Source of the DNA: a virus
Lineage: Duplodnaviria; Caudoviricetes
Length of the DNA: 64,000 nt
IMG/VR virus record: IMGVR_UViG_2936514734_000001
Coordinates: 1 to 64,000 of that record
Strand: one strand, 5' to 3'
The stretch's first letter is position 1, and every line of letters starts with the position of its first letter. The notes under the pieces are model-generated. The model was not told where the DNA came from, made no database searches, and saw only the letters and a program-made list of their open reading frames with translations. Position numbers and translations under genes: made by a program. Shown in pieces: positions 1-17,307 of this stretch.

Positions 1-1
1 T

Positions 2-2488
2 CAAATAGCTGAACAAAACTATGCACTTGCTCAACAAGCAAAAGGGGTAGAAGCTGCACCTATTTATCAATTGCATAAATTGAAAAACATGACTATTGAG
101 CAAAATCTATCTGATATGGAACAAGTAGATACAATAGCTGGTTCCGCTCTTGATGCGTTCTATAGTGCATCTGAATTAGGAGGTATCTATGGTTTCTTAA
201 CCAAAACTGGTATTGGATATGAAGAATCATGGCGTGGTACAACACTTGCACCTTCAAGCTTGATGTCTTCTCCAAGTCGTGCGTTTTGGGATATGAACCT
301 TGGTGGTCTTGGAGGTTCATTATCAGAGATTGGTCGTCGTTATGTTCCTCGTGACCCTAACAAAGATTATTATTCTCCAATTCGAAATACAATGCCTGAT
401 TGGTTGCCTGGTCTAGGAGAACAAGAAGACTTTTTGCATGGTGACCCTTACACTAAAATTCAAAAAGGTGAAATAAGACTCCCAGGTAAAGCATATGAAA
501 AACTCTATAAGCTTCATCCAGATGGTACAGGTACAGGTGAGTTTGCAAACTACGGTGTTTTTGACCGCTTCCGTATTTTAGCTGATGTTGCGCCAGATAG
601 TGAACAATACAGTGTAGCTAAACACCAAGTTACATTGTTGAGACAAGCTGGTGGCATGACAGAGGATATGGAAAAAGAATTTGACGAAATCACAGATCAA
701 GTTCATAACAAGCAAGATACAATGCGTTGGTATGATAAGAAATTCTCTCATGCTGAAATTAAAAAAGAGACAGTTACTATCTCTAAAGTTATTGATGCAA
801 ATACCTTCATGGTTAGAGAGTATGATACACCAATCAAACTTGCAGGTGTTAAGCTGACTAAGAAAGACAACCAAGATGTTATTGATTGGCTTGGACAGTA
901 TTTAAAAGTAGGCGAAAAGATTAAAATCGGAGTTGCTGAAGATCCGGGTGCAAGGTACAACAATGACACTTATAACACGGTATCTGCTGTTGTTTATGCA
1001 AATAAAAATGAGGATGGCCGCTTCTGGTTTGAATCTAATAAAGGTCAATCACTGAATGCTCTTATTGCTAATCGTACATGGAATAAACCAGTTCAGATAA
1101 AAGATGATGGAAGTCCAACTTCAACTGCTGCTCTTTATTCTAATGATATGATTACAGTCGGTAAGTATATGGAGACATTAACACACGATATCTTACCTAA
1201 AGTACCTTTTGTCGGTATCTTAGCGGATAAGTTCTTACAAGTCCGAACTCCTGTTGAAAGCTATGAACGTGAACAGGTTTATGGTTCAGATTGGAGACCT
1301 TGGCAACATCCATATGAAGGATGGATTAAGCCAATGGTCAATACTGTTGCTTCTCAAAACCCATTAGTAGCGGGGGCTGAGATGGCCGCTATTGGTCATA
1401 TGTTTGGTCGAGGGACTAAGATGACAGGTTTAGGACGTGTTGCAGGATTCTTTATTGGTGCAGGTTTCGCTTCTCTGAGAGTGCTTGATGAACAAGCGGA
1501 AAAGGTAGTGCCGGGTGCTGATGGTGTATGGTTGCCTAAAGAACGTGAAAAAGAGCGTGAAATAAACGAGTACTTTGACCGTTTAAAATACGTTAAATAT
1601 CGAGGCCTATATGAGCAAGCACGAAAAATGGCAATGCAGGAAGAAGGCATTGATGTTGAAGAATTTTTCGATGCTGCCGCTGAAAAAGGCGAAAAAAATA
1701 AAGGTCTTAAGCGTTTCTTAACAGAGAAGAAAAGAATGTTGTCCTTCGCTAAAAAAATGGGTTATGGTGATACCGACGCCGTTAAGTCGCAAATTAGTGA
1801 ACTCTCCGACGGATTAGATGAAATCTCTTCCGCAAAAGAAGCGTATCAAGCAGGCAAATATACGTCACTTGCTATTAAATATCGTAAGGAGTATGAAGGT
1901 ACTTTCTATGGTATGGGTGAGTATGGTGCTTCTGATCGTACCGCGTTAATGAGAGCCTTAACACCAAAAGAGCGAGAATACATTCCTCGTTTCCTTGAAA
2001 CTACAGATAGCAAGGAACGCCAAGAGATTCTTAAATATGTTCCAAAAGACATTAAGAGAATCTTACAAGGTAGCTGGGGATTGAAGGTAGATAAACAAGA
2101 AAACATTAAAGCATATTTTGATGATCATTATCTACCAAGTGAAAATTGGGGTGGTTGGTCTGCAGGTGTAAACCTTGATGATATTAAAATTAAGGTAATG
2201 AAGAAAGAGGGCGTTAACCCTACTCAATCTGGTTATTGGGGTAAAGACCAAGCTAGAGCTGAAAAGTCAGGGCAGAAAGCAATTCCTATTCATTCGCTTA
2301 GCGGAAAAATCGATACCAATCGCTTAAATGAAGTGTTAGCAGGCATGGGACTATCTGATGTAGATGTCCAATTAACTACTTCTTATGGAGATGGACCGGG
2401 TGGAATTAATACCTCCATCAACATTTTAAATGATGTACACAATGAAATTGTTGATACAATCAATGACAGTGTACACTCACTTTTCTAA
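2..2488 (+). CDS. 5'-truncated large virion/ejected protein with a degenerate thermonuclease (SNase-like) domain and a glycine-rich hydrophobic segment
   Basis: Frame is open from position 2 (QIAEQNYALAQQ...), so the TTG at 71 is internal. SNase-like pattern TISKVIDANTFMV...IKLAGVKL...DTYNTVSAVVY lacks the DGDT, R and DxPE residues. Hydrophobic segment LGRVAGFFIGAGFASL. Confidence 0.6.
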   Translation, partial: QIAEQNYALAQQAKGVEAAPIYQLHKLKNMTIEQNLSDMEQVDTIAGSALDAFYSASELGGIYGFLTKTGIGYEESWRGTTLAPSSLMSSPSRAFWDMNLGGLGGSLSEIGRRYVPRDPNKDYYSPIRNTMPDWLPGLGEQEDFLHGDPYTKIQKGEIRLPGKAYEKLYKLHPDGTGTGEFANYGVFDRFRILADVAPDSEQYSVAKHQVTLLRQAGGMTEDMEKEFDEITDQVHNKQDTMRWYDKKFSHAEIKKETVTISKVIDANTFMVREYDTPIKLAGVKLTKKDNQDVIDWLGQYLKVGEKIKIGVAEDPGARYNNDTYNTVSAVVYANKNEDGRFWFESNKGQSLNALIANRTWNKPVQIKDDGSPTSTAALYSNDMITVGKYMETLTHDILPKVPFVGILADKFLQVRTPVESYEREQVYGSDWRPWQHPYEGWIKPMVNTVASQNPLVAGAEMAAIGHMFGRGTKMTGLGRVAGFFIGAGFASLRVLDEQAEKVVPGADGVWLPKEREKEREINEYFDRLKYVKYRGLYEQARKMAMQEEGIDVEEFFDAAAEKGEKNKGLKRFLTEKKRMLSFAKKMGYGDTDAVKSQISELSDGLDEISSAKEAYQAGKYTSLAIKYRKEYEGTFYGMGEYGASDRTALMRALTPKEREYIPRFLETTDSKERQEILKYVPKDIKRILQGSWGLKVDKQENIKAYFDDHYLPSENWGGWSAGVNLDDIKIKVMKKEGVNPTQSGYWGKDQARAEKSGQKAIPIHSLSGKIDTNRLNEVLAGMGLSDVDVQLTTSYGDGPGGINTSINILNDVHNEIVDTINDSVHSLF

Positions 2489-2553: not shown

Positions 2554-5500
2554 ATGGATGAAATCAAACGCGTACCTCTGAAAAACAGAAACTTATTGCC
2601 TGTATTCGAATCAGCTGATGGTTCCGGTACTATTAAAATGTTAAATGAACAAGAAAGAACCGCTGCTAAACAAAGACAAGAAGCGGTTTCTCAAACATAC
2701 AATGCACTTATAGAATCACACCGAATTAAGTCTATGGGGATATGGGAATCAGCACGTACTCCAAATGGCTTTAATGTAAATGCTCAACAAGCTTTAGATC
2801 CCTTTATGAAATTAAAGGCAAAAGAGAATGTGAGCTTCTTTGATATTGAAGCAATTGGTACTCCTGAGCATATGAGAAAAGGCACAAAAGGTCTTGATTT
2901 ATTTGCTATTACCGAATTGTCTTTCGGTGGAACGCAATTTACGGGTAAGGACTTTGTTAGCAATAAAGGCCAAATCATGTCATTAGCGATTGCACCAGGA
3001 AAACATGAGTATGAACGGTTAAAATCACAAATTAATCAGTTGAAGCAAAATCCTATGATGTCTATTTCTCAAGATATGCACCGTACACTACTTGATCTTT
3101 CTAAGTACTCAGATGATAAAAAGTTTCAGCGTTTCACAAAGACAGGTGAAAGACTACTTCAAGATGGTAAAGAATATACTCTTTTGTCTGGACATGCTCG
3201 TGTTCCGGCTGCTAATACGGCTTTTACACGAAATACAGTTGAAGAAATTGAAGCAGGGTTAAATAACCTATATAAGCATGGAACTAAGCTCAAGGATGCC
3301 CTCTCTATCTTCAAAACACATATTGAATCTACAGATTCAAAATTAGGTGGATACAATATTCATCATTATGATCTTCCAGCTATACTGGGATCAATAAAGG
3401 ATAAGGATACTAAAGACTTCTTTACTGCCGCTTCTAAAAACTCACTAGATTTTTATCACGGATACTCCGCTACTGCTAAAGACCCTTATTCTCTAACGGG
3501 TGCGAGTTTACGGCAAGAACATATCCACCAAAGTTTATTGAATAAAAAAGTTATTAAGGGAGCTCAAAACAAATACCTTTATCACTTGGCCAAAGATGAT
3601 ATTCAAGCGAATATTGATATTGCTGGATTCACTTACAATCAAATTAATAAGTTTATTGAAGAAGATAAAAAATCTCCTGCAGATTATGCTCTTACCCCAT
3701 CTACCTTAAAAACCGATATTCTTCAACAAGGACAGGAATTGTTCTCTTTTCAAAGTGGTTTCTTTGATAAAGATAAACATAAGTACAATTTAGTTGCTAC
3801 AGCACAAGAAGATGGTAAATTAAAGCCACGTTGGTCAAACCTCAACACATCTCTTCCTTCAAATGAAAGCTTCATCATTAATGAATTCCTAAAAGATGTA
3901 CCTCTTCCTGGAACTGATAAAACAGGCTATGGAGTAAGACTTGATTCTAAGGATATTAAAGGGAAAAGTCTTCTATTGATGTCGGAAACTCAAGAAGATT
4001 TAGCACAGCAAATACATGGCTCATTTGTTCCATTAAATGATGAAATCGGAAAGGGACTTAGAGATTTAAAAGTAAAACACGATGCATCATTCCGTGAGTA
4101 TGAAAGAATGTTCGACAGTAATGGCTGGAAGAAAATGAATGAGTACTATGGATACCTAAATAGTGCTGGTGAAGTAGGGAAAGATTTTGACTGGACTAAA
4201 CATGTACTAGCGAATGGTGGTACAGAAGAACTTGCAATTAAGTTTCCTCACATGGTTGAAAGATTAAAAGGAGAACGACAAATTTGGCAAAAGGTGCAGG
4301 AGCAATTAGCTCAATCCAGATTAGATGACAACCAAAAATCTATTGCTCTACGACACTTTAAAAACAAATTTGATCAACTAGGTGATAACAAAGCAGAAGT
4401 ATCTGCCGAAGGAAATAAGTTCTTTAACTTTAAGTTTGGTAAAAGCGATGAAACTATTTTTAACGCTAAAAATACAGACCAAATAAAGAATGCTTTCAGA
4501 AGCTATATCCGAGGAAGCAAACGTGGAGATCGTGTAGGAGAACCTGAAAAATCTTACAAGATAGCTCGCATTGATGAATTAAGTAATTTTGTTCTTGATA
4601 ACTTTGGCTTTGAAAAAGATAGCGTAGAGGCCAATAAGGTCAGAGCTATTGCAGATGGAATGAAAAGTGAGGTTTATTCAGGTAATAAAATTGAAACTGC
4701 TTTAACAAGTATCTCTAACTTTGTTCGTGATCATGTGGAGTCAAAAGGAAAAAGTAGCTTTGTACGTGAGGTAACAAATGAAGTAACTAGTAATCGCTTA
4801 TCAGCCATTTCAAAGCTTCAAGAGAAGTTACCGGAAGTACTACAGGAAAGTATTCAGCATTCACAATCGTACTCCAAAGCTAAAGAAGCTATTAATGGAA
4901 ATTCGAAATTAAAGAACTTCCTTCAACAGCAAGATAAATACATCAAGCAATTGTTCGCTAAAAACTTTGGTGCACATGGCATGAATGATCCTGAAAGCAT
5001 TCATAAAGCAAGTCGTATGGCTTCTAAGTATGAAGATTTAGTAGGGAAAATCATGTCTGCCTATAGTAATGATTTTAATACTCAAATCCGTTTCACTGAA
5101 GAAGGAAAACCTTTATTCGTTTTAGCAGATAAGAAAAGCGGAATGGATTTAAGTCAAATTAAGACATATGAAGAATTAGTTAATAATGCAAAAGTGGCCG
5201 CTATTGAGTTACCACATTTCGATGAAGACTTAAAAGTAAGATATGGTGGAAATCGAAAAGCAGCGGTTATCCGTTCAGGTGTTAGTAATTCTAAGGGTGT
5301 TTATCATAGCACTACCGTTACCGATGCATTAAATATGATTCTTGATTACTCAAAAAAAGCCAAAGAACTAGCTGAGATTGCAGAAGGAACTGGACGAAAA
5401 AATCAGTTTGTTGAAATCAGACAAGGGCTTCGTTATAGAGTTGGTAGACAAGTAGACCCTGTTCCTACAGATGCTAACCGTAAGTTAAGCTTCGACGATA

Positions 5501-8500
5501 AAGAAATGTTTGAACTAAAATCTGCAATTAGTGGAGAAGTTCGTTCAAGTAAATGGGATATTACAGGCTATGCTGAATCTTGGTATCGTCAAAATTCTAA
5601 GCGTTTAGGTTTACATGCGACAGCAGATGTAATTGCTGAAAACGCAAAAGAAAAAGGTATCTCTTTCTATGAAGCAATGGGGCCACGAGCTCAAGGTTAC
5701 GCAACTAGCGGTGGATTACTTGAACATGCTAAAAACATGTCTGGATTAAAAGGAAGTATGTTTGGTATCAACAACCGTTCTGCTTCTAGAGGATATGTTG
5801 GTACGGCATTAACTGATGCTCGTACTTATATGGCATTAGGTAACTACTATTCTGATTCTGTAGAGAACCCGCACAAAACGGTAAACTACAGAGCTGTTGA
5901 TAAAGAATATGCTGACAAAGCTTTGAGCAAAGCGGGGAAAAATCAATCGTTCCGTACAAATAACAGCTTTGTTTCATCTGCTGCTTATAAGGCATTGAAA
6001 GATGGCGAAGAGATACGTGGTATCACAATGCAAACTGGTTACATGACCGATGAAGAGATTGCTCTTAAATTAAAAGATGCAAACAATATTTCTCGCTATA
6101 AACAGATGATTGATAAAGCTGAACGTAAAAATCAACTTTCTCCAAAAGAAGCTAAGCAAATGAAAAAAGCTTTAGATATGGGGATGCTTTCTACAAGTGA
6201 AGGTCTTGCATTTATGGATCATACCTTATTGAAAGCCTTTGATGGTATGGATGAAGTGCGTGTCAATATGAACGCTGACGATGTTAGATTCAATAATTCT
6301 ATTGAAGCAGCTATTGAAAAAGAAGCTGAGAAACAAGGTCTTGGTAATGGGCTCTGGAAAGAAAAAGGAGTCACTTTTGAAAAGCCTGTAAAAATTGATG
6401 TATCAGACATGATGGATGAAAAGGATACGTTGACTCTAGGTAAGTACTGGAACAACAACATCGAGAACACCATTGTGGATGAAAAACGTTTCCGTAAGGG
6501 AGATAAAGTTCATATTCTTGGGTTCAGTGCAGATGATATTGCTAAGAAATCACTAATTCTTGGCAGGGAACGTAAGACAGGTCAAGGTTTCAAAGCGGTT
6601 ACTGAAGGTGGATTCCGTGCTACTATGACACCTATGCTCAGTGAGATCATGAGTGATCTTTATGGTGTAGAAGGAGTAGAGCAAGTTATTTCCCATCTTG
6701 GAGAGAAAAAAGGAGCTACAGATTTACCTGCTTTAATCCGTGGTTACGATACTCAAATTCGTCAACAATTTAGCGGTACAGCATCTAAGAAGATTGAAGG
6801 TTATTCTTCTGAAGAAGAAGCATTAGCCGCTTTCTATAAAGATGTTGAAGATATGGTTGGTATTAAAACAACTAACAGAGAAGGGCAATATGTTGTAGAT
6901 TCAAACTTTGGTTTAGATGGAAAGCAAATTAAGTACGAAGATCGCCAACGACTTTCTGAAAAATGGAAAGGCGAATTGGGTCTAAACCGTGAAGTATTTG
7001 CCGACATTACAATGGCTCACGATGTATGGAATCGTCAAGGTGGAAAAGATCGAGGCAAAATCACTGTTAAAGAGATTGACATGTTGGACCGCTCATATAT
7101 ACGTACTGGTTTGTATGCTCCAGGTGAAACCTCTGCTCATGCAAGCTTTATGCGTGATATGGTATATGGTTCTCAGACTACTCCAGAAATAAAAGCTCAG
7201 AAAAAAGTCTTCTCTGAAATGGTTAAAGCTGTTGGGAATTATGAAGATGGCTGGACACCAAAAGCAGGAGATGCTGTTATTGATTATACTACTGATGGTA
7301 TGGGATTAATGACAGATGTGAACGCACAATTAAAAGACGGTGTGCTTCATGTGAGTAAGGACTCTTTCCAGCCTGTTCCTCAAAAATCAGGTCATAATCA
7401 AACCTTCACAGTTGGTGATTATAACAAAACCATTATTAATGCAGGAGCTATGGAAGTTAAGCTTGAAGCTGGTGGAGAAGGTAAGAAGCTTCAGAACTAC
7501 CTTATGGAGCACAAAGGAACAGCTTACTTAAAGTTGCCTGAATTCGCTGCTAATCAATATGTTCCTCTTCTTGATACTGAATCAATGAAACTGCCTGGTG
7601 ACGTAAACTTTGTTGAGAAAACAGAGTTCTTGGATACTCTTAAAGGTCATTATGCTAATATCTCTCGCAAAACAGAAGAATACAATAATCTTTTTGTGAA
7701 TGATAAATTCTCTGAAGCTCAAGTCGCTGAACGTCGTGGAGTACTAGAGAAAGAAATCAATCGAGAAGTATCTAATCTTATTACTACTTTAGGTGATTCT
7801 ACATCTAAAGAAGGAATGTCTAAGATTATGGCAAGACGTCTGCCAATGTCTTCTCAGTATCAATTTGGAAGCGTAAACCCGGCTTTAGCCTATCAGAAAG
7901 ATGATGGCAAGTGGGTAAATAACGGCATTGTAAAAGAAGGCGAAATCTACATGAATGAAAAAGATATTCGTAACTTAGTAGGCGATAAAGCTGAAAACAT
8001 TGCGAAGTCTTGGAATGTAGATGTTGATAACATCAAGGCGTCTGATGTCGGATTAAAACAGAGAAAAAATGAAAATAATGAAGCCTTTAAAAATCGTGTA
8101 ACTACAGAGTATGTAATGAAAAACTGGAACCAAAATGACACATTCTCTACTACGATTCGTTATCCATCAATTGACGTGGGAACCACTCAAGCTTTAAAAG
8201 TAAAAATGAGTGATGCTGTTGGCGAAGGACAAGTAGTTGGTTTACGAGGTATGGCTGAACGTATCTCTGGTGACTTTGATGGAGATAATCTAGCTGTCTT
8301 CCTTACTCATTATGGAATTGATGACGAGAAACAGCGTGAAGCTGTATTGAAAGATGTAACAAAATTGCATGATTTCGATAAAGCAAAGAACGAATTAGCG
8401 GCTGATGTCATTATGAACAAAATGGAGAAAGACTTCCGGACTAACCTTTCTGAAGCAACTGGACTTGATGTAAACCACAAAGACATCTCAAAAGTAACAG

Positions 8501-9915
8501 ACCGCTTCTTCTCAGGTGAAAATATTGCAAAAGACCTGACACTAGGTAATTTACATGGTTCACAGGCAGAAGAAACAATCCAAAAAGCCCTCTCTAGTAG
8601 CGGAGCATATGAAGATTGGGGTACTGTTAAAAATGGTAAGTTTGGTTTAGGTGAAGCTGAGCATGAAAAATCCATTTTAGCTCGTGCTACTTCAACCACT
8701 ATCGGTAGTGTAGATAATACTCGTATGAGAATGTCAGCTGCATTCATGACAATGGCTGAAACAAAATATAAGTTATTTAATGATGCAGAAGGTCCAGCTA
8801 AGTACACGAAACAAGACTATGTACGAGAAACCGGTATGGTTGATGAATTCTTGCGTGAGTATTCTCAGAAATCTATTTCCGCTAAAAAAGTAGAAGGTTC
8901 TGACTCTACTGCTGAAGACATCATGAAGGATCTTTACAAGATGATTGATGATGTTAATAATCCGAGCAACAAACTGGATTATGATACAGCGGCCGCTCAA
9001 CTTGTTGATCGAGGACTATTCAAAAATGAGCCTTTCTTAGAAATTGGAAAAGGGGAAGTCTACAAAGGTTCAAGTCATGAGTTCATTAAGAAATCCCTAT
9101 CTATCTTAGGTGGAGCTGAAGAAGCTTACTCAGAAATGGGTATCAAGGGTTATAGAGAATCTAGCTTACTTGTAGCTGCTTCTCAAGGTATTGGGTTTCA
9201 CAACTTCTCTCACATGGTTAAAACAGGTGAACATATTCCTGGCATGGATGCTGTTAATGAGATTAGTAATATTGCTAAAGAATACGGCAATGACAGAATG
9301 GCTAAACATCAAGAATTCTTTGAGAAAACAGTTGAGCGTGTTCATGAACGTAGAGCAGCTAACGTATCTGGTCGATTAGAAGATGCAAGTAGCTCTTTAG
9401 AAATCATGAATAGTAACAAGCATGTAGAGCCTAAAATCCTAGAGAATAGTGCAATGCCTATCCATAAAACAATACGTGACCAAATGGATGATTCATTTGC
9501 AGAATTAGCTACAGCTGCAAAACATACCTTCCATGGTTCTGCTGCTAGTTTAGCAGGGGTAGGTGCATTAGGTTTTGGAGCAATATGGGCAACTAATGCT
9601 TTAACAAAGAACGCACCAACACCAGAAGGATTGCAGGAAATGGCTCCTGTAAATCCAGAGGTGCTAGGAGCTCCTACAGCCCGCGTAACGCCGAATCAAA
9701 ACGGTGAATATATAAATATATCTATTAGTGCAAAAGCCGCTCAGCGCCTAGATCATAACGATTTGGCAGCCATGATTAACAATGAAGTCATGAGCATGTC
9801 GAATGTTAAGATGAACACCAGTGTAAATGTAAATGACAATTCTAAAAAGATTGATCGAAACTGGTTGGAGGGAGCTGTTGCAAATGCAATGAATAATGGT
9901 TATGCATATAAATAG
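2554..9915 (+). CDS. Single-polypeptide two-barrel RNA polymerase (beta+beta'-like) with N-terminal DEDDh 3'-5' exonuclease; probable virion RNA polymerase
   Basis: TIRYPSI...QA...ISGDFDGDNLAV aligns with beta' NRAPTL...QA...NADFDGDQMAV; GFKAVTEGGFRA aligns with beta GDKMAGRHGNKG; exonuclease motifs FFDIE, GYNIHHYD and HLAKDD; RBS aggaggg. Confidence 0.85.
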   Translation: MDEIKRVPLKNRNLLPVFESADGSGTIKMLNEQERTAAKQRQEAVSQTYNALIESHRIKSMGIWESARTPNGFNVNAQQALDPFMKLKAKENVSFFDIEAIGTPEHMRKGTKGLDLFAITELSFGGTQFTGKDFVSNKGQIMSLAIAPGKHEYERLKSQINQLKQNPMMSISQDMHRTLLDLSKYSDDKKFQRFTKTGERLLQDGKEYTLLSGHARVPAANTAFTRNTVEEIEAGLNNLYKHGTKLKDALSIFKTHIESTDSKLGGYNIHHYDLPAILGSIKDKDTKDFFTAASKNSLDFYHGYSATAKDPYSLTGASLRQEHIHQSLLNKKVIKGAQNKYLYHLAKDDIQANIDIAGFTYNQINKFIEEDKKSPADYALTPSTLKTDILQQGQELFSFQSGFFDKDKHKYNLVATAQEDGKLKPRWSNLNTSLPSNESFIINEFLKDVPLPGTDKTGYGVRLDSKDIKGKSLLLMSETQEDLAQQIHGSFVPLNDEIGKGLRDLKVKHDASFREYERMFDSNGWKKMNEYYGYLNSAGEVGKDFDWTKHVLANGGTEELAIKFPHMVERLKGERQIWQKVQEQLAQSRLDDNQKSIALRHFKNKFDQLGDNKAEVSAEGNKFFNFKFGKSDETIFNAKNTDQIKNAFRSYIRGSKRGDRVGEPEKSYKIARIDELSNFVLDNFGFEKDSVEANKVRAIADGMKSEVYSGNKIETALTSISNFVRDHVESKGKSSFVREVTNEVTSNRLSAISKLQEKLPEVLQESIQHSQSYSKAKEAINGNSKLKNFLQQQDKYIKQLFAKNFGAHGMNDPESIHKASRMASKYEDLVGKIMSAYSNDFNTQIRFTEEGKPLFVLADKKSGMDLSQIKTYEELVNNAKVAAIELPHFDEDLKVRYGGNRKAAVIRSGVSNSKGVYHSTTVTDALNMILDYSKKAKELAEIAEGTGRKNQFVEIRQGLRYRVGRQVDPVPTDANRKLSFDDKEMFELKSAISGEVRSSKWDITGYAESWYRQNSKRLGLHATADVIAENAKEKGISFYEAMGPRAQGYATSGGLLEHAKNMSGLKGSMFGINNRSASRGYVGTALTDARTYMALGNYYSDSVENPHKTVNYRAVDKEYADKALSKAGKNQSFRTNNSFVSSAAYKALKDGEEIRGITMQTGYMTDEEIALKLKDANNISRYKQMIDKAERKNQLSPKEAKQMKKALDMGMLSTSEGLAFMDHTLLKAFDGMDEVRVNMNADDVRFNNSIEAAIEKEAEKQGLGNGLWKEKGVTFEKPVKIDVSDMMDEKDTLTLGKYWNNNIENTIVDEKRFRKGDKVHILGFSADDIAKKSLILGRERKTGQGFKAVTEGGFRATMTPMLSEIMSDLYGVEGVEQVISHLGEKKGATDLPALIRGYDTQIRQQFSGTASKKIEGYSSEEEALAAFYKDVEDMVGIKTTNREGQYVVDSNFGLDGKQIKYEDRQRLSEKWKGELGLNREVFADITMAHDVWNRQGGKDRGKITVKEIDMLDRSYIRTGLYAPGETSAHASFMRDMVYGSQTTPEIKAQKKVFSEMVKAVGNYEDGWTPKAGDAVIDYTTDGMGLMTDVNAQLKDGVLHVSKDSFQPVPQKSGHNQTFTVGDYNKTIINAGAMEVKLEAGGEGKKLQNYLMEHKGTAYLKLPEFAANQYVPLLDTESMKLPGDVNFVEKTEFLDTLKGHYANISRKTEEYNNLFVNDKFSEAQVAERRGVLEKEINREVSNLITTLGDSTSKEGMSKIMARRLPMSSQYQFGSVNPALAYQKDDGKWVNNGIVKEGEIYMNEKDIRNLVGDKAENIAKSWNVDVDNIKASDVGLKQRKNENNEAFKNRVTTEYVMKNWNQNDTFSTTIRYPSIDVGTTQALKVKMSDAVGEGQVVGLRGMAERISGDFDGDNLAVFLTHYGIDDEKQREAVLKDVTKLHDFDKAKNELAADVIMNKMEKDFRTNLSEATGLDVNHKDISKVTDRFFSGENIAKDLTLGNLHGSQAEETIQKALSSSGAYEDWGTVKNGKFGLGEAEHEKSILARATSTTIGSVDNTRMRMSAAFMTMAETKYKLFNDAEGPAKYTKQDYVRETGMVDEFLREYSQKSISAKKVEGSDSTAEDIMKDLYKMIDDVNNPSNKLDYDTAAAQLVDRGLFKNEPFLEIGKGEVYKGSSHEFIKKSLSILGGAEEAYSEMGIKGYRESSLLVAASQGIGFHNFSHMVKTGEHIPGMDAVNEISNIAKEYGNDRMAKHQEFFEKTVERVHERRAANVSGRLEDASSSLEIMNSNKHVEPKILENSAMPIHKTIRDQMDDSFAELATAAKHTFHGSAASLAGVGALGFGAIWATNALTKNAPTPEGLQEMAPVNPEVLGAPTARVTPNQNGEYINISISAKAAQRLDHNDLAAMINNEVMSMSNVKMNTSVNVNDNSKKIDRNWLEGAVANAMNNGYAYK

Positions 9916-9917
9916 AC

Positions 9918-9955
9918 AGAAGAGAGTTAACTTTTTGTTAGCTCTTTTCTTTTAT
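9918..9955 (+). terminator. Intrinsic terminator-like hairpin
   Basis: agaagagagttaac-ttttt-gttagctcttttct followed by ttt. Confidence 0.65.
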
Positions 9956-9975
9956 CAGAAAAAAGAGGTGAGCAC

Positions 9976-12900
9976 ATGAAAGAGAAAATTTTAATTACCT
10001 CTCTAGCAAGAGTGTCAAAAAACACTCCTTGGCGTGTTGGTATTTATACAAATGATAACTATACATTCTTTAATGTGGGCGAAAAAGGAAATGTTGCAAT
10101 GAGCCCCCGTTTTAATATGTTTCTTGATGCAGTAGAAAAGAAGGTAACTCGATACCCTGTAGATGTTAGTTTTCATCCAATCAAGGACAATAGGGAGATG
10201 GAGATTACTAAAATTCGAGATCAAATTGTATATGTTGATTGTGGGTTTACAGCAAATCGGTTAATTCCTAATGCTCGTTTCTATTACGATAAAGAAGTAT
10301 TTTCAAATCCGCTTGCTATTAAACAGCAAAAGACGCAGGATACAAGTGGAATGTTTTCTGTAATGGATGTTTCAGAAAATATTGCTTCTACTGCCTTACA
10401 ATACATTGCTGTAGGACGTGTAGAGCAAGTAACTGACGGCGATACCATAGATGTAACTTTGCTCAAAACGTCTGATTTCTTATCCTCTCGTTTTGATACT
10501 AATGAAAAAGTTACGATAAGATTTAATGGTGTAGATACACCTGAAAAATATCAAGAAGGTGCAGAAGAGTATAAAGACCCTAAAAATACAAAGTTCGGTA
10601 AACTCTACGGTGTAACAATGCAAGACATGTACACTGTCGGAGGAGAAGCGTATGAGTATACGAAAAAGCTTCTAGGATGGAATAGCTCCAACAAACCGCT
10701 TGTTATCCTAAACTTTGATCGTCAAAAAGATGGGGATGACCCAATGATGGATGCAGGATATGGACGTTATGTAGCGGACGTATATGCAACAAGTGAAAAG
10801 AATGCTGAAATCGCTATGGAGAAAGTTGAACAAGGTAAGTCTTTTGTACACGTTCCAAAAACACTATTAACAACAAAATCTAAATCATTTCCTCAAGTTC
10901 CTCTTGGTTTATTTCAATACGAATTCGCTTATGACGGATCAAGCATTCTTAATCCTTTCGATTGGGTATCAGAACTAGGATTGAAAGGATTTGATCCAGG
11001 CAATCAGTATACTCCTGATAATCTACAATCTGATACTGATCCTGATGTTAGTTCGGGAGATGTACAAGTTTATGATACAAACTTAAACACTGATACTATT
11101 AATTTCTCTTCTACAGATGGTCCAACCTCTAATAACTTGGACTTCTTTGAGCCATACGATGATCGTCTTGGCGATTTCACAAAGGGAATTAAGAGCGTAG
11201 CGGATTTAAAGAAGCATTCAAAAGTTCGTATCGGTGACGTTATCTTAACTATTCCTCCAACTTCAATTGAAGTAAATAAAACTTCTAATATCTCTAAAGT
11301 AAAAACACTTCGTACTAAATCTTCTGTTTTAGTTAACCGTGGTCAAACACTAACTACACTTAGCCTAAATCTGTACTTCCATGATTTAGAATCCATTAAT
11401 GGTACTCAATATCCTTGGAGAAAGGATTATAAAAAAGGTGAAAAGCAGAAACACTTCTTCGTTGATGGATTACGTCCTCTACTTGCACAATTCACTAAAA
11501 CACCATTTGTACCTATTGATAACTATTATATTAATGATGTCTTAGGTATTCGTGATGTAGCTTTAATGGATATCGAAGTAACAACAGTGCCTAATTTCCC
11601 TGAATCCCTAACTGCTACTCTTACACTAGTTGAGTTTAACTGTGAAGCATATCTAATGGATCAAGGAACGTTAGGTGATTCTATAAACTATCCGCTAATG
11701 CGTTGGTTTTACAATCAAGCAATGGCTAACCGTGGAGAGAAATACCGCTACTTTAAAGGCTTAGATGCACCTATAAAAAGTGACATTAGCTTTACGCTTG
11801 CAGATGAAGAGTTTTTATCTAAACGTAAAGAAGCTATTCAGTATATTAAAAAAGCTGATTCACCTGAAAAAGTACGTGTAGAAATGAAAACTAAGAATAC
11901 TTCTTATAAAGCTAAGAAAGAAGATGAAAAGGTTCTCAGTAAGATTGTTTCACAGTATGAGGTGTACTCCAAAGCGAACATAAAAAAATATACGGTTATC
12001 GACTATTTCAACAAACCTGGATTAAACGGTCCGTCTAATAGTATTGCCGGTCAACTAATAGAGAAATATGGTATCAAAAAAGAGACAGCAGATAATGCAA
12101 TTCTTGAAGGAATTGAACTGTTTACCGAAATGTATGATGGTAAATATAAAAACGAAACAACTGTATTGAAAAATCAAAATATCTTCTTACCATATGAATC
12201 TCGTTTGTACTACAAGTCTCGTTTTGATTGGACTGGATTAGAAGGATTCTTTACTAACTATGATGAAGAGCCTCCTGTAGATTATTCAGAAGAGCCATAT
12301 AAAGGACAAGAGTCTAAAGGATTGGTGTTATTCGATAAGCTGACCGACATTGACAACCAAGCTAAACTTGAGAAGAAATTTAAAAAATACTATGACTCTG
12401 GTAAAGGCCGCTTTATGATTCCTGCAAGCTCTGATGCAATGAAGACAATTAAAGAAGTCGCGAACTCTGCTAAAGATATGATGGATAGTGTTGATGCATA
12501 CGAGGAAGAGTTTAATGAGATTCTAGGGATTATTGATGCAAGTGAAGCTGGTATCCCAATGAAAGAATTTGAAATCTCAGGTAGCATGATTCCTATTTCA
12601 CTTAATGCTCGATTCTCGAATGAATACAGTATCTCTCATGTTCAATCGGGAGAAGCAGCTACTTTGCAATATATGGGTGGAGGCGATCCTTACGTTGACC
12701 TTATTTTAGAAGTTGACGAAGATGCAGCTAAAGATATTAACAGACTTGTTGCTATTTCTGATTATTATGCAAAGACCTACAACCAAGGGATTACTAATGG
12801 TTATATAGGTATTCAAAATGACTTAGCTCAATTGTTCGGCATTCGATATATCATGTTTGAAAACTTATCCATCAATACAGTGCCTAATTTCCCTGACCGC

Positions 12901-15900
12901 TACCAAATTATGATTCGTGCTATTGGGTTTGACAAAACACAACGTCAACGTGAAGAATTAACTGCTTTACCAGGAAACACTGATCATATGGACATTGATA
13001 TGCTTACAGAGAATAAAGGTGCATTTGCAAGTGATAGAATGATTGAATCTCGTCTTCACCAGTTAGAAGTTTATCCAGATTTAGAGCTTCCTACTTATAA
13101 CCAATTGAATAAGGACTTGGCTGAATTTGATGCAGGTTCTATTAAAGAATATGTAAATCTAAACGGTGGTACATATGTAGATCCTGACTTTTATTTTTCT
13201 ACTGTAAGTACCTTCAGAAAAATGGTTGAAGAAGAATACACAAGCGAACATCGATTAAATATGTTTGATGCAACTGGTGTAGCTGCATACACAAGTAGTA
13301 CAGATGCAGAGCAGGTTTTCAATACAACAGATACAGACTGGAAAAAGCTTCAGGATATGCAAACTACTGAAGGCGTTGAACCTATTGGATGGGTGTTTAG
13401 ATGGGGAGAAGGACAGCAGGAGACTCAGGAAACAGCAACCGCTTCTACAGGTACTCTTGCAGCTGAACAGGGAGGTACTTTGTCAGCGCAAAACCCTGAT
13501 GTGCAATCATTCTTAACCGCACAAGAAAATGGGGCACCTACATATAATAAGTTTCCTACTCTTGAAGAATGGAATAAGTTATTCCCTAAAAACGATTATG
13601 TCTATAATCTCTATAGTTCACAGCCTGGTGCTGATGAAACTCTTATCTATCAAGAGCTTAGTTATCAAATTGATAAATACTTTAAGAAATACTATTCAGC
13701 TCCAAACTTTATTAAGGAGTGTCGTGGTGACTTAAAGGATGCTGACAAGTCTAAGAAGCGAGTTTCTTATTCAGTTCCTAATGATTTTTATGCTATGTAT
13801 TTTGATTATCAGCGACGTACTCAACGGTCGTTTAAAGAAGTAGCAAAAATTGATGAACTAACAAAGGATAAAAAGATTACAAGACCAAGTGAAACTGATA
13901 GTGTAGATGCAGCGGATTTCCGTAAGACCGATAAGAAAATCACAAAAGAACGTTTTATGACTCTTTTCAAAGCTTTCTTAGATAAAATGAGCGGTTGGCA
14001 ACATTACAAAGGAAAAGGTCCTTTGGTTAGCAAAACAGGGCGCGTTGGGTTAGCTCAGGTTGATATTACAGGTAAAGACATGACTGTTGATGAAGTAAAA
14101 CGACTAATGTACAACTGGAGATACAACCTTGAAGTAGCGGTGAAACAATTGTTAGGACACTTCAAAAAAGCTAAAAAGCTTAATGATGATTGTACTAACT
14201 TTGAAGTTTTTTGTCGTCCTTGGGATGCAATGTTTGCATTATATGAAAAACCGGACGCTAAGCTTCTTCGTTCATCAGATGTAGAAGATAGTGACTTTGC
14301 TAGTGGTATCATGAGTCGATTCACTGCATATGCAACAAAACCTTTTAATACATTCAGTGGTTTCAATGAAGAAGTGTACAAGCAGTTTGCTGGTCTATCA
14401 ATGGAAGAACAGACATCTGTAGGTGGAGGAAACGAGACTGATTACGTTAACTCGCTATTAGAGCTTGAATACTATGATCAATCAGTTCTTAAAAAAGCAG
14501 GTCTAACAATTAAGTCTGATAAGAAAAACATCAAAAAAGCTATGAAGAAATATCTAAGTGAACAAACCAAAGAGACACTTTATGAAATCTATCAAAAACA
14601 CTTGAAATTCCTGTATGAACTAGGTAAATCGGATAGTACTGCAGAGAAGGTTATAGATGGTGTTTCATGGCTTAACCCGGCAAACCTAGCGGGTGGAGTT
14701 GCACATAAGGTAACTGATAAAGCTACTGATTTTCTTTTCTCAGACAAAAAAGATAAGAATGGATATGAGTACAGCAAAGAGATTATCGAAAAAGGTAGTA
14801 AGCTTTACGAGTCAATTAGAAACCTCGATAAAACTGCTGAAAGCTCTCAAGCATCAACAGATACTCGTTTGTTTAATGATGTTGATCCTCATACCATTTA
14901 TCAAGAAATGTTCTACGACTTGAGATACCATGATCAAAGAGGACGTATGTTACGTGCATTCCCTGGATTCCAAATGTTTATCATTCAAGAGGGTGACTAT
15001 TTTGGTAAGTATAAGTTCTGGGACAACATGTACGGGTTCAATGCAATCCAAAGTATTGACGTACACCGTTCTCGTAAAATAGCAGCAGATACAGCGGTTA
15101 TTTCAATGACGAATGTATACTCAAACTTAACAACTCGTCGTACCGATGTTGACTATGTTGACCGTCAGTTAAAATGGTGGGACAACTATATATGGAATGA
15201 GATTCCTAAAGATCTTATTGATAAGAAGGAAAATGAAATCCATAAGAACATCTACCTCGAAACAGGTGCGAGAATACACCTTCGTATGGGATATGGTGCA
15301 AACGCAAGCTCACTACCAGTTGTCTTTAATGGAACAATCACTGAACTTGAAATAGGTGATTTAATTGATATCGTTGCTCAAGGTGATGGAGTCGAACTAG
15401 GAAACGTTATTTCTGGTGACCCTGACGATGATAACGACGGTCTATTCAATGTAACTGAACCTAGAGACTTAATTTGTAGCTTATTAAGCTCAAAAGGTAG
15501 CTGGTTTAAAGACTTCATGAATAATGTTTCAGATGGTCAATTGTTTAGACAAAACCCTCTAGGTATTATGCATTTCGGTCAACCTTTTGACACAAATGAT
15601 TCCACAGCTGCAAAACCTCTTGGAAATCTTCTATGGTACAACGATGAATATGGTGAAGTAGCCCAAAATATTTACTCTTCTAATGGATCACCAACCTTTT
15701 CTCAATGGCTACACCCGAATGGAGAAAGAAATGATATTTTCCATGATTTTAGTTGGAAACGTCTATGGGATAATAAGTTCAAAATTCTTAACCCAGGTGA
15801 TGAAAAGAACGTTGTTGTTAAGTTCTACAACAATACTGTATGGGACATCATTCAAACAATAGCATATACATCTCCTGACTATATTGCCGCTGTCATGCCT

Positions 15901-17307
15901 TTTGAATTACGCTCAACACTGTTTTTCGGAAAACCATATTGGAGAGCCGCTTATCAATATGATTCTCGATATGAGTTCGATGCTGCTAATAAGACATGGG
16001 CAAGACATCTAGTAAAAGAAGCTAGAAGACCATATATGCAACACAAGTTCTACACTTCAGCCTATGACATCATCGAAAACAATATTAGAGCTTCTGAAGA
16101 AAATATCTATACAAACGTAATTGTTAACTATGACGGTAAACAAACTCCTGTATTGTATGCTGATGCGGATATCCGTTATGACAAGCAAAAAACTCGTGTA
16201 GTAGAAGCGGATATTGTTGCTAAGTTTGCTGATTATTACACCTCTGAAGTAGTCGCTACTTACTACGGCAACTCTGCTCTTCGTGATAATCTAAAAGACA
16301 TGTACAAAGGTAATTTACTTGTTATGGGTGACCCAACAGTTAAGCCTCATGACATGATGTACATCGGTGATGAAATCAATGATTTACAAGGAAACTGCCT
16401 AGTGAAATCTGTAACCCACCATTTTAGTTTAGAGACTGGATTTGTTACATCAATTGAACCGGATTTACTTATTGTCAATGATGACCAAGTTATCCTTGAA
16501 CTAGGCAAGTGGTATTACAGTTTTGCAAGTTCGATAGGGGCTACACTGGCAATGCGTTATGCTGCTAAGAAAGCAACCCGTAACCTAGTGAATTGGTTAA
16601 TGAAGCCTAATGGTGTACCTGTAGGTGTTGGGAAATGGGTATCTACAAAAGGTTTAAGACACACAGTGAGTCTAGCAAGCGACGGCAGTAAAGATTTTCA
16701 AGACATCTTGAAAACAATTGATCAAATCATTGCTTCTGGTGATAAAGATGTAAGTGCATTGCAGACCAAGTTAGCAGGTCAATTTGATACAGCGGCGCAA
16801 AATCTACAAAAAGCAACGGGCAAAGCGGGTATTATAAAAGATACATCTAGAAAGGCTGTTCTTAAATCAGGTGCATCCTTTATGAGAACTCTCGGTGGTA
16901 CTTCAAATATTGCTAAAGTAGGTTTGAGTGCAACGAAAATAGTAAGAGGAGTAGCTTCAATAACTCCTGTTGGCTTCATTGTTAACTCTGCGTTATGGGT
17001 AGGAAGCGAAATGTTATTTGAACATTATCGTCGATACAAAGAAAACCTACAGTGTGTAATCTGTATTCCTCTGACATATCGAGGACAAGAGCTAACAGCT
17101 GGTATCAACAATCATGCAGGTATGGTTTATGGAGACAATCCGGGCCGTTACGATAGATTGTTTGACGCTACATTTGGTTCAGATGATGGTGAAGCTGAAG
17201 ATATCTTTGGTAACTCATTATTCGAACTCGCTAACTTCTTTAGTGGATCAGGTGGAGTATACTCTGACCCTGAGAAGACAAAAGAATTAAATAGTCTTGG
17301 TAAATAA
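9976..17307 (+). CDS. Giant baseplate hub fusion: thermonuclease + two tube-like domains + degenerate SLT + gp27/gpD-like hub
   Basis: VTDGDTIDV, IRFNGVDTPE and YGRYVADVY (SNase); ARIHLRMGYG...VFNGTITE and GDPTVKPHD...VKSVTHHFS...GFVTSI (hub); lies upstream of spike and wedge genes. Confidence 0.75.
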   Translation: MKEKILITSLARVSKNTPWRVGIYTNDNYTFFNVGEKGNVAMSPRFNMFLDAVEKKVTRYPVDVSFHPIKDNREMEITKIRDQIVYVDCGFTANRLIPNARFYYDKEVFSNPLAIKQQKTQDTSGMFSVMDVSENIASTALQYIAVGRVEQVTDGDTIDVTLLKTSDFLSSRFDTNEKVTIRFNGVDTPEKYQEGAEEYKDPKNTKFGKLYGVTMQDMYTVGGEAYEYTKKLLGWNSSNKPLVILNFDRQKDGDDPMMDAGYGRYVADVYATSEKNAEIAMEKVEQGKSFVHVPKTLLTTKSKSFPQVPLGLFQYEFAYDGSSILNPFDWVSELGLKGFDPGNQYTPDNLQSDTDPDVSSGDVQVYDTNLNTDTINFSSTDGPTSNNLDFFEPYDDRLGDFTKGIKSVADLKKHSKVRIGDVILTIPPTSIEVNKTSNISKVKTLRTKSSVLVNRGQTLTTLSLNLYFHDLESINGTQYPWRKDYKKGEKQKHFFVDGLRPLLAQFTKTPFVPIDNYYINDVLGIRDVALMDIEVTTVPNFPESLTATLTLVEFNCEAYLMDQGTLGDSINYPLMRWFYNQAMANRGEKYRYFKGLDAPIKSDISFTLADEEFLSKRKEAIQYIKKADSPEKVRVEMKTKNTSYKAKKEDEKVLSKIVSQYEVYSKANIKKYTVIDYFNKPGLNGPSNSIAGQLIEKYGIKKETADNAILEGIELFTEMYDGKYKNETTVLKNQNIFLPYESRLYYKSRFDWTGLEGFFTNYDEEPPVDYSEEPYKGQESKGLVLFDKLTDIDNQAKLEKKFKKYYDSGKGRFMIPASSDAMKTIKEVANSAKDMMDSVDAYEEEFNEILGIIDASEAGIPMKEFEISGSMIPISLNARFSNEYSISHVQSGEAATLQYMGGGDPYVDLILEVDEDAAKDINRLVAISDYYAKTYNQGITNGYIGIQNDLAQLFGIRYIMFENLSINTVPNFPDRYQIMIRAIGFDKTQRQREELTALPGNTDHMDIDMLTENKGAFASDRMIESRLHQLEVYPDLELPTYNQLNKDLAEFDAGSIKEYVNLNGGTYVDPDFYFSTVSTFRKMVEEEYTSEHRLNMFDATGVAAYTSSTDAEQVFNTTDTDWKKLQDMQTTEGVEPIGWVFRWGEGQQETQETATASTGTLAAEQGGTLSAQNPDVQSFLTAQENGAPTYNKFPTLEEWNKLFPKNDYVYNLYSSQPGADETLIYQELSYQIDKYFKKYYSAPNFIKECRGDLKDADKSKKRVSYSVPNDFYAMYFDYQRRTQRSFKEVAKIDELTKDKKITRPSETDSVDAADFRKTDKKITKERFMTLFKAFLDKMSGWQHYKGKGPLVSKTGRVGLAQVDITGKDMTVDEVKRLMYNWRYNLEVAVKQLLGHFKKAKKLNDDCTNFEVFCRPWDAMFALYEKPDAKLLRSSDVEDSDFASGIMSRFTAYATKPFNTFSGFNEEVYKQFAGLSMEEQTSVGGGNETDYVNSLLELEYYDQSVLKKAGLTIKSDKKNIKKAMKKYLSEQTKETLYEIYQKHLKFLYELGKSDSTAEKVIDGVSWLNPANLAGGVAHKVTDKATDFLFSDKKDKNGYEYSKEIIEKGSKLYESIRNLDKTAESSQASTDTRLFNDVDPHTIYQEMFYDLRYHDQRGRMLRAFPGFQMFIIQEGDYFGKYKFWDNMYGFNAIQSIDVHRSRKIAADTAVISMTNVYSNLTTRRTDVDYVDRQLKWWDNYIWNEIPKDLIDKKENEIHKNIYLETGARIHLRMGYGANASSLPVVFNGTITELEIGDLIDIVAQGDGVELGNVISGDPDDDNDGLFNVTEPRDLICSLLSSKGSWFKDFMNNVSDGQLFRQNPLGIMHFGQPFDTNDSTAAKPLGNLLWYNDEYGEVAQNIYSSNGSPTFSQWLHPNGERNDIFHDFSWKRLWDNKFKILNPGDEKNVVVKFYNNTVWDIIQTIAYTSPDYIAAVMPFELRSTLFFGKPYWRAAYQYDSRYEFDAANKTWARHLVKEARRPYMQHKFYTSAYDIIENNIRASEENIYTNVIVNYDGKQTPVLYADADIRYDKQKTRVVEADIVAKFADYYTSEVVATYYGNSALRDNLKDMYKGNLLVMGDPTVKPHDMMYIGDEINDLQGNCLVKSVTHHFSLETGFVTSIEPDLLIVNDDQVILELGKWYYSFASSIGATLAMRYAAKKATRNLVNWLMKPNGVPVGVGKWVSTKGLRHTVSLASDGSKDFQDILKTIDQIIASGDKDVSALQTKLAGQFDTAAQNLQKATGKAGIIKDTSRKAVLKSGASFMRTLGGTSNIAKVGLSATKIVRGVASITPVGFIVNSALWVGSEMLFEHYRRYKENLQCVICIPLTYRGQELTAGINNHAGMVYGDNPGRYDRLFDATFGSDDGEAEDIFGNSLFELANFFSGSGGVYSDPEKTKELNSLGK

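Follow-up and report, generated by a model that had tools for sequence, protein, structure and literature searches.

Gp96 of the Thermus phage P23-45, whose tail is non-contractile, is to our knowledge the only tape-measure-fused virion RNA polymerase that has been studied experimentally so far. This tape measure of 5,002 amino acids (aa) carries an active two-barrel polymerase at its N-terminus, with a DFDGD motif at residues 779-783, and transcribes the pre-early genes, including the gene of a second polymerase; the relatives G18 and phiFa are without the polymerase part (Chaban et al., 2024, PMC10770324; PDB 8H2M, 8H2N). In phage 0305phi8-36, orf146 has been assigned to the tape-measure slot; its product, gp146, was found to be a virion protein by mass spectrometry and annotated as a 'hypothetical tape measure protein', and only the last 60 residues align among members of the lineage (Hardies et al., 2007, PMC2147016). 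The tail of this phage has been measured at 486 nm (PMC4113786). Here we analyze gene B, which encodes a 2,453-aa protein in the first 64 kb (the window, 64,000 nucleotides, to which coordinates refer unless marked 'genome') of the 239,374-bp IMG/VR phage record IMGVR_UViG_2936514734_000001, rated complete by CheckV.

On balance, we favor a reading in which B is a tail-borne ejection protein that carries a virion RNA polymerase on a tape-measure-like chassis. The observed features of B that argue for an ejection protein are its gene slot, an end domain homologous to that of gp146, a tightly kept length, and a single glycine-rich helix. The parts of this reading are not equally strong: B is likely to be virion-borne and ejected, and by analogy it probably passes through the tail to start phage transcription; residence in the tail lumen has a little better than an even chance; a role as the sole length ruler is doubtful. 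The gene has the following features.

2554..9915, plus strand: gene B, whose 2,453-aa product combines exonuclease motifs and a two-barrel RNA polymerase core with a single hydrophobic helix and, at its end, a conserved domain
2842..3600, plus strand: DEDDh-type exonuclease motifs D97, E99, D273, H344 and D349, invariant in 13 homologues
6151..8553, plus strand: single-chain two-barrel RNA polymerase core, residues 1200-2000, from an AlphaFold2 model, Foldseek and VIA-align
6592..6618, plus strand: basic pair K1347...R1355 of the beta-like barrel, invariant in 38 diverse sequences, with a weak alignment to bacterial beta GDKMAGRHGNKG (expectation value, E, 0.37)
8158..8310, plus strand: beta'-like barrel RYPS...SGDFDGDNLAVF (R1869, P1871, D1907, D1909, G1910, D1911), invariant in 38 sequences
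9535..9600, plus strand: glycine-rich hydrophobic helix GSAASLAGVGALGFGAIWATNA, family consensus GAxxFGxxWAASALxRxG
9616..9684, plus strand: PTPEG, a variable proline-rich linker and PTAR; 26 diverse tails all agree at P, T, P, E and at P, A, R
9703..9912, plus strand: end domain of ~70 residues, comprising strand INISISAK, helix DLAAMINNEV, strand MNTSVNVND, helix WLEGAVANAM and terminal GYAYK, with secondary structure read from the residue pattern

A preliminary description of this DNA had called the gene product an RNA polymerase, and structure prediction bears this out. The AlphaFold2 model of residues 1200-2000, computed from a 38-sequence alignment, has a predicted local distance difference test score (pLDDT) of 84.1 and a predicted template modeling score (pTM) of 0.75; an earlier AlphaFold model from 13 sequences was poor (pLDDT 60, Foldseek E 0.025, VIA-align matches dominated by a helical hairpin). 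The region adopts a mixed alpha/beta enzyme fold and not a mostly helical coiled-coil chain. Foldseek with the core model yields 200 matches in the PDB at E <= 0.001, of which the best 50 are beta'/Rpb1-type subunits without exception, at probabilities of 0.91-1.00 (1.00 in 43/50), and include the AR9 and phiKZ non-virion polymerases, bacterial and archaeal enzymes, Pol I, and the plastid enzyme. VIA-align ranks QDE-1 first (Z 13.0), with RDR2 at Z 10.9, P74-26 gp62 at Z 10.7 and P23-45 gp96 at Z 8.7; its single-chain matches run from model residue 13-16 to about 720-750 and cover both barrels. When the core profile is compared with PDB sequences by HMMER, the phiKZ non-virion beta' comes first at E 0.0055, with RYPT...DyDGD placed on HRNPTL...NADFDGDQL, and the second match, a weak one, is the bacterial beta GDKMAGRHGNKG stretch at the K1347/R1355 site. 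Residues T1294, K1347, R1355, K1506, P1662, R1869, P1871, T1877, D1907, D1909, G1910, D1911, and Y1920 are invariant in the 38-sequence core alignment; these include all of the catalytic residues, among them the DxDxD metal-binding triad of the beta'-like double-psi beta-barrel. Because Foldseek, VIA-align and HMMER agree, we conclude that B, as modeled, contains a single-chain two-barrel polymerase core; RNA synthesis itself is predicted. The Pfam models of beta' (PF00623) and beta (PF00562) match nothing in the whole genome, even at E 10.

One segment of the core also occurs elsewhere. An unrelated 968-aa protein (P0066) consists of eight tandem units of ~100 residues, each of which matches positions 374-441 of the 801-residue B-core profile. 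These repeats correspond to B residues roughly 1575-1645, suggesting that this part of B is a mobile repeat-type domain inserted between the barrels.

B belongs to a family that is narrow in length and broad in sequence. A profile search of 1.84 billion proteins recovered only its own family, which forms 48 clusters at 50% identity; among named homologues, those of Priestia, Gottfriedia, and Cytobacillus are the closest. Full-length members number 41 and are 2451 +/- 37 aa long (2366-2541 aa), with cores down to 15% identical to that of B, so that length varies within 1.5% despite very divergent sequences. The motif D-x-D-G-D is present in every full-length member. Neither Pfam nor PHROGs matches B, including its exonuclease domain in the case of Pfam, and megablast of the gene against phage records gave no match.

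Shorter homologues of the Bacillus mycoides type (P0009 and P0010; 2,083 aa, ~150 member sequences) retain the N-terminal part along with a tail that is nearly identical, but have lost RYPS...DxDGD. The tail is thus retained without the catalytic barrel, and hence independently of catalysis. These homologues sit in resident elements of the B. cereus group, next to a shorter version, 1,432-1,450 aa, of the gene that precedes B, and probably represent the BtI1/BwK1-type elements of Hardies 2007.

The stretch singled out by the preliminary description, positions 9480-9915, encodes residues about 2310-2453 of B. All of the C-terminal features named there, the hydrophobic glycine-rich helix, INISISA, DLAAMINNEV, and MNTSVNVND, are found in the translation of 9535-9912, which reads GSAASLAGVGALGFGAIWATNAL...PTPEG...PTARV...YINISISAK...DLAAMINNEV...KMNTSVNVND...GYAYK. 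The hydrophobic segment, residues 2328-2346, is the sole one in all 2,453 residues at a Kyte-Doolittle value >= 1.0. An alignment of 26 relatives, down to 32% identity to B over the tail, gives the end-domain consensus GExINIxISAK...IAALV..EL..M....MNMNxNVNDNTQxID..WLQGxVANA...G(F/Y)x(F/Y). Mean column identity is 42% in this 164-residue tail alignment and 27% in the polymerase core, making the tail the best conserved of the regions aligned across the whole B family. In solved systems tape-measure C-termini anchor on the spike (PMC11329794), which offers an obvious job for such a conserved domain, and we propose that it docks on the hub or spike. The PTPEG/PTAR stretch could be a docking peptide or a protease or processing site; it matches no known motif. 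Pfam yields only scattered chance-level matches on the tails of the 26 members. When proteins of 288-2000 aa were searched for the B tail in a different protein context, it turned up only in fragments or in members of the B family, in each case beside the hub gene.

The setting of B is that of a tail module. It is the middle of three consecutive giant genes, A (2,168 aa), B, and C (2,443 aa), of which A spans the ends of the record. The neighboring features in the window are as follows.

2..2488, plus strand: gene A, C-terminal 828 residues (whole protein 2,168 aa, start at genome 235356), directly after two chaperone-like genes
2405..2434, plus strand: INTSINILND strand near the C-terminus of A (GGINTSINILND), poorly conserved in 68 A-family tails
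9976..17307, plus strand: giant hub-type gene C, 2,443 aa, matching 0305phi8-36 ORF147 'baseplate hub protein', KLEB27-3 'putative baseplate protein' and phrog_20474

The record is cut within gene A, and joining genome 235356-239374 to window 1-2488 yields a single 2,168-aa open reading frame (ORF); the deposited 'linear' record is therefore a circular permutation or a circular element. At the other record end, A is preceded by the sheath gene, by three genes of tube type, and by a pair of chaperone-like paralogues (148 and 191 aa), so that the sheath, tube and chaperone genes for which the preliminary description recommended looking upstream are all present. C is followed by genes for two lysins, one SLT and one M23+NlpC/P60, then by small genes, a gp25-like gene (21508), and baseplate J (21996). 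The description had placed the polymerase gene directly before hub, spike, gp25 and J: the hub does follow B immediately, whereas two lysin genes separate C from the gp25-like gene. The order, running from the tube genes through the two chaperone-like paralogues to A, B and C and on to the lysins and baseplate, is the same here, in two metagenomic relatives (L005 and L006), in KLEB27-3, and in 0305phi8-36; a third metagenomic contig, L010, begins inside B and keeps the portion from B through C and the lysins to the baseplate. The B-then-C order is thus retained in L005, L006 and L010. B accordingly lies directly upstream of the hub gene and one gene away from the chaperone pair in five lineages and, in part, on a sixth contig. 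The cultured relatives are the Bacillus jumbo myophages KLEB27-3, Edson, and WH1, with 0305phi8-36 more distant.

In 0305phi8-36, chaperonins 143 and 144, gp145, gp146, and hub gp147 define the same slot as that of B. The last ~60 residues of gp146 are homologous to the end domain of B (hhalign probability 80%, E 1.5e-5, 59 columns; BLASTP E 0.002), and the remainder of gp146 cannot be aligned with B. At 2,537 aa, gp146 is similar to B in length but different in content: unlike B, it lacks a DxDxD motif and does not match the polymerase core model. Mid-protein, gp146 (L004:17624-25237) contains DEDD-like motifs (YLDIETTG, NVADADW, HLARAD) and no polymerase motif; because Pfam fails to detect an exonuclease there, that assignment is a reading of the motifs only.

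Gene A, the other giant protein between the chaperones and the hub, is uninterrupted in L005 (2173 aa) and L006 (2227 aa) and is homologous to 0305phi8-36 gp145 and to KLEB27-3 gp031+gp033. Its family measures 2097 +/- 72 aa (n=53). Pfam and PHROG searches with A gave no match, and an ESM Atlas search with its N-terminal 1,339 aa gave no usable match. In KLEB27-3 (8168-15321), A is split into gp031 (1,340 aa) and gp033 (677 aa), with the 211-aa gp032 between them; the break falls at a conserved MPDWLPG site and looks like an intron or homing-endonuclease insertion. Five metagenomic A homologues of 2,269-2,520 aa (P0132, P0134, P0135, P0138, and P0140) contain intein/LAGLIDADG domains (PF14528, PF14890, PF13403), which are unusual within a giant protein of the tail module.

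The preliminary description had further noted that the ORF upstream of B ends similarly and had suggested that a shared (I/M)NTS(I/V)N(I/V)xxD tail could be a loading signal. INTSINILND is indeed present near the end of A, and in a scan of the phage's own ORFs of at least 100 aa (66.5 k residues) the NTS-type patterns match only A and B, 17 and 25 residues from their C-termini, against 0-0.2 matches expected from shuffling; the pattern was set after viewing both sequences, so that this significance is overstated. The motif is strong in the B family (hNhNxNVNDN(T/S)QxID..WLQG) and weak in the A family, where the consensus I.T...I.KD degenerates to h.h.h.h..D, with variants such as LDIDIDVYSD. 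Profile-profile comparison rejected homology of the two tails, at E 0.098 with shallow alignments, at E 0.39, and, when 68 A tails were set against 26 B tails, at E 0.11 local or 0.46 global. From these sequences we read the endings as a similar local pattern, an amphipathic strand, Asp, a helix, and a hydrophobic end, with no demonstrable common signal. The likeness of the two endings thus survives as a local pattern, and the idea of a shared loading signal is not supported.

If B is a tail-borne ejection protein, its end domain would dock on the hub or spike during tail assembly, as do the tape-measure C-termini in diffocin, 80alpha, and T5, and the tube would polymerize around B, alone or together with A. 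Upon sheath contraction B would exit C-terminus first, and its hydrophobic helix would insert into the membrane. The N-terminal enzyme parts may then fold on the cytoplasmic side and transcribe the DNA that enters first; the exonuclease of B probably also acts on the entering DNA. A second polymerase encoded in the genome would take over afterwards. This YonO-like single-chain protein (1,461 aa, ADHDGD; genome 206169-210554, minus strand) shows a weak PF05183 match (E 1.3e-4), is the counterpart of 0305phi8-36 orf99, and is probably a non-virion enzyme. The B profile does not match it.

How far does this evidence make B a tape measure? The preliminary description had proposed that the polymerase might itself be a tape measure or tube cargo. 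The slot, the gp146-type end domain and a gp96-like layout speak for that proposal; composition does not, as neither A nor B is rich in helix formers in the classical tape-measure manner, both being of globular type, and A is an equally placed candidate for the ruler. No conventional tape-measure gene, the observation that the description had set against its own idea, was found elsewhere: the whole 239-kb genome contains no member of a conventional family (Pfam PhageMin_Tail, Pfam TMP_3, TIGR01760, PHROG tape-measure groups). The tight length of B fits a ruler but does not prove one. Several further points weigh against our preferred reading. At least 1,200 residues of B lie in confident globular domains of folded enzyme, and its helix-former content, admittedly a crude measure, is 0.40-0.47 throughout, compared with about 0.55-0.65 in most of the gp96 tape. 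B matches no tape-measure profile in Pfam or PHROGs, and its place in the virion of this phage is a prediction. hhalign and HMMER find no similarity between B and gp96, and the B profile does not match gp96 residues 1-1200; their likeness is therefore one of architecture and fold and not shown descent. Homology of the B and gp96 tails was likewise rejected: the strand-plus-'LD' helix of both was paired, at a non-significant E of 0.31. The tape-measure length rule is about 0.15 nm per residue. At this value the 2,537 aa of 0305phi8-36 correspond to 380 nm, not 486 nm (PMC4113786); the measured tail would take 0.19 nm per residue.

The position of A, directly after the chaperones in the canonical tape-measure slot, raises the further possibility, which we consider unlikely but worth retaining, that A is the true tape measure and B a separate ejected cargo, bound to the hub by its end domain or else kept at the end of the tube, that does not set length. 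A has glycine-rich hydrophobic segments of its own, one N-terminal and one C-proximal, as does 0305phi8-36 gp145, and B consists mostly of enzyme domains. However, A is no more helix-rich in composition than B and matches no tape-measure profile either; it varies more in length (standard deviation 72 vs 37 aa for B), with inteins in some members, and its fit to 486 nm is poorer still, as 1,930 aa at 0.15 nm per residue give 290 nm. Less probable again is a mixed tape measure in which A and B share the lumen, for example as three copies each, both anchored on the hub by their C-termini with the similar strand-then-Asp endings as equivalent docking sites. Two adjacent giant genes behind two paralogous chaperones would suit such an arrangement, as would the ending common to both proteins (amphipathic strand, Asp, helix, hydrophobic C-terminus), the confinement of the motif to A and B among the ORFs of the phage, and reports of tape measures as trimers or hexamers (PMC11329794); yet deep alignments reveal no profile homology between the tails, the motif is poorly conserved in A, and the two proteins differ by ~350 residues. 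A capsid location for B, its place in the tail module being incidental, appears the most improbable of these alternatives. N4 and crAss-like phages carry their virion polymerases in the capsid, and folded polymerase domains exceed the width of the tube lumen, which would favor packaging B in the same way. The giant polymerases of those phages are also fused to large regions of unknown function (PMC10770324). Against this stand the strict conservation of the chaperone-to-hub position across a very divergent family, the homology of the B tail to that of the 0305phi8-36 tape-measure candidate, and a C-terminal layout of helix plus end domain that is typical of tape measures and not of capsid-internal proteins. 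B as a tail-borne ejection protein with a virion polymerase remains the reading that we prefer.

If this reading is true, the P23-45 solution arose again in an unrelated family, this time in jumbo phages that have contractile tails and Bacillus-type hosts, and with a proofreading-type exonuclease added to it. Natural chassis-only controls would be at hand in 0305phi8-36 gp146 and the B. mycoides-type forms, which keep the length or the tail without the catalytic barrel, and the 2007 tape-measure assignment in 0305phi8-36 would be reopened. The storage of a large folded enzyme in a 4-nm tail tube, and its passage through it, would become a testable question, for which the conserved end domain provides a defined handle in docking and cargo-delivery experiments. 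A bolder version, which we put forward as a speculation with the chances well against it, is that throughout this lineage of long-tailed jumbo myophages the ruler of tail length is no coiled coil but a protein (or the A+B pair) made of enzyme domains in series, stored in the tube in an unfolded or extended state; on contraction the tail would deliver ready-made transcription and nuclease machinery, which refolds on its membrane anchor, and PTPEG...PTAR...end domain would be the universal hub-docking signal of the class.

Like the conventional tape measures lambda gpH, T4 gp29, T5 pb2, and diffocin CD1366, B is encoded upstream of hub or tip genes and contains a glycine-rich hydrophobic segment, and its small end domain has a counterpart in the small C-terminal region with which these proteins are expected to anchor at the tip (PMC11329794). 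Unlike them, B does not consist mainly of coiled coil, and two of its domains are enzymes of nucleic acids. With the single-chain polymerases QDE-1, plant RDR2, phi14:2 gp66, YonO, P74-26 gp62, and P23-45 gp64, B shares the fold and the order of a beta-like followed by a beta'-like barrel, but its beta'-like motif RYPS...DFDGDNLAVF is closer to that of the cellular and jumbo-phage beta', and no gene for any of these enzymes lies in a tape-measure slot.

The closest architectural parallel is P23-45 gp96, which shows that a tape measure can be partly enzyme. Both gp96 and B are giant tail-module proteins with a single-chain two-barrel polymerase and a DFDGD motif, and VIA-align superimposes the B core on the gp96 structure over 186 residues (Z 8.7, root-mean-square deviation 4.1). 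In both, the enzyme parts lie N-terminal to a glycine-rich hydrophobic stretch that is followed by a short C-terminal end; the stretch in gp96 lies about 75-110 residues from the C-terminus and precedes a strand-plus-helix segment, an arrangement comparable to that of B. Each phage has a second, non-virion polymerase elsewhere in its genome, and each chassis has relatives without a polymerase, G18 and phiFa for gp96, and 0305phi8-36 gp146 and the B. mycoides-type forms for B. The two differ in that the enzyme of gp96 is followed by ~3,800 residues of tape, with a metallopeptidase besides, whereas the core of B is followed by only ~450 residues and preceded by a DEDDh exonuclease; the P23-45 tail is non-contractile, whereas the phage of B has sheath genes; and, unlike in P23-45, a second giant protein, A, is encoded between the chaperones and B. 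Because P23-45 gp96 has already been published, a tape-measure-fused virion polymerase is not new in kind; what is new here is an unrelated family from jumbo phages with contractile tails, in which an exonuclease is added, the region after the enzyme is short, a second giant gene lies next door, and some natural variants lack the polymerase.

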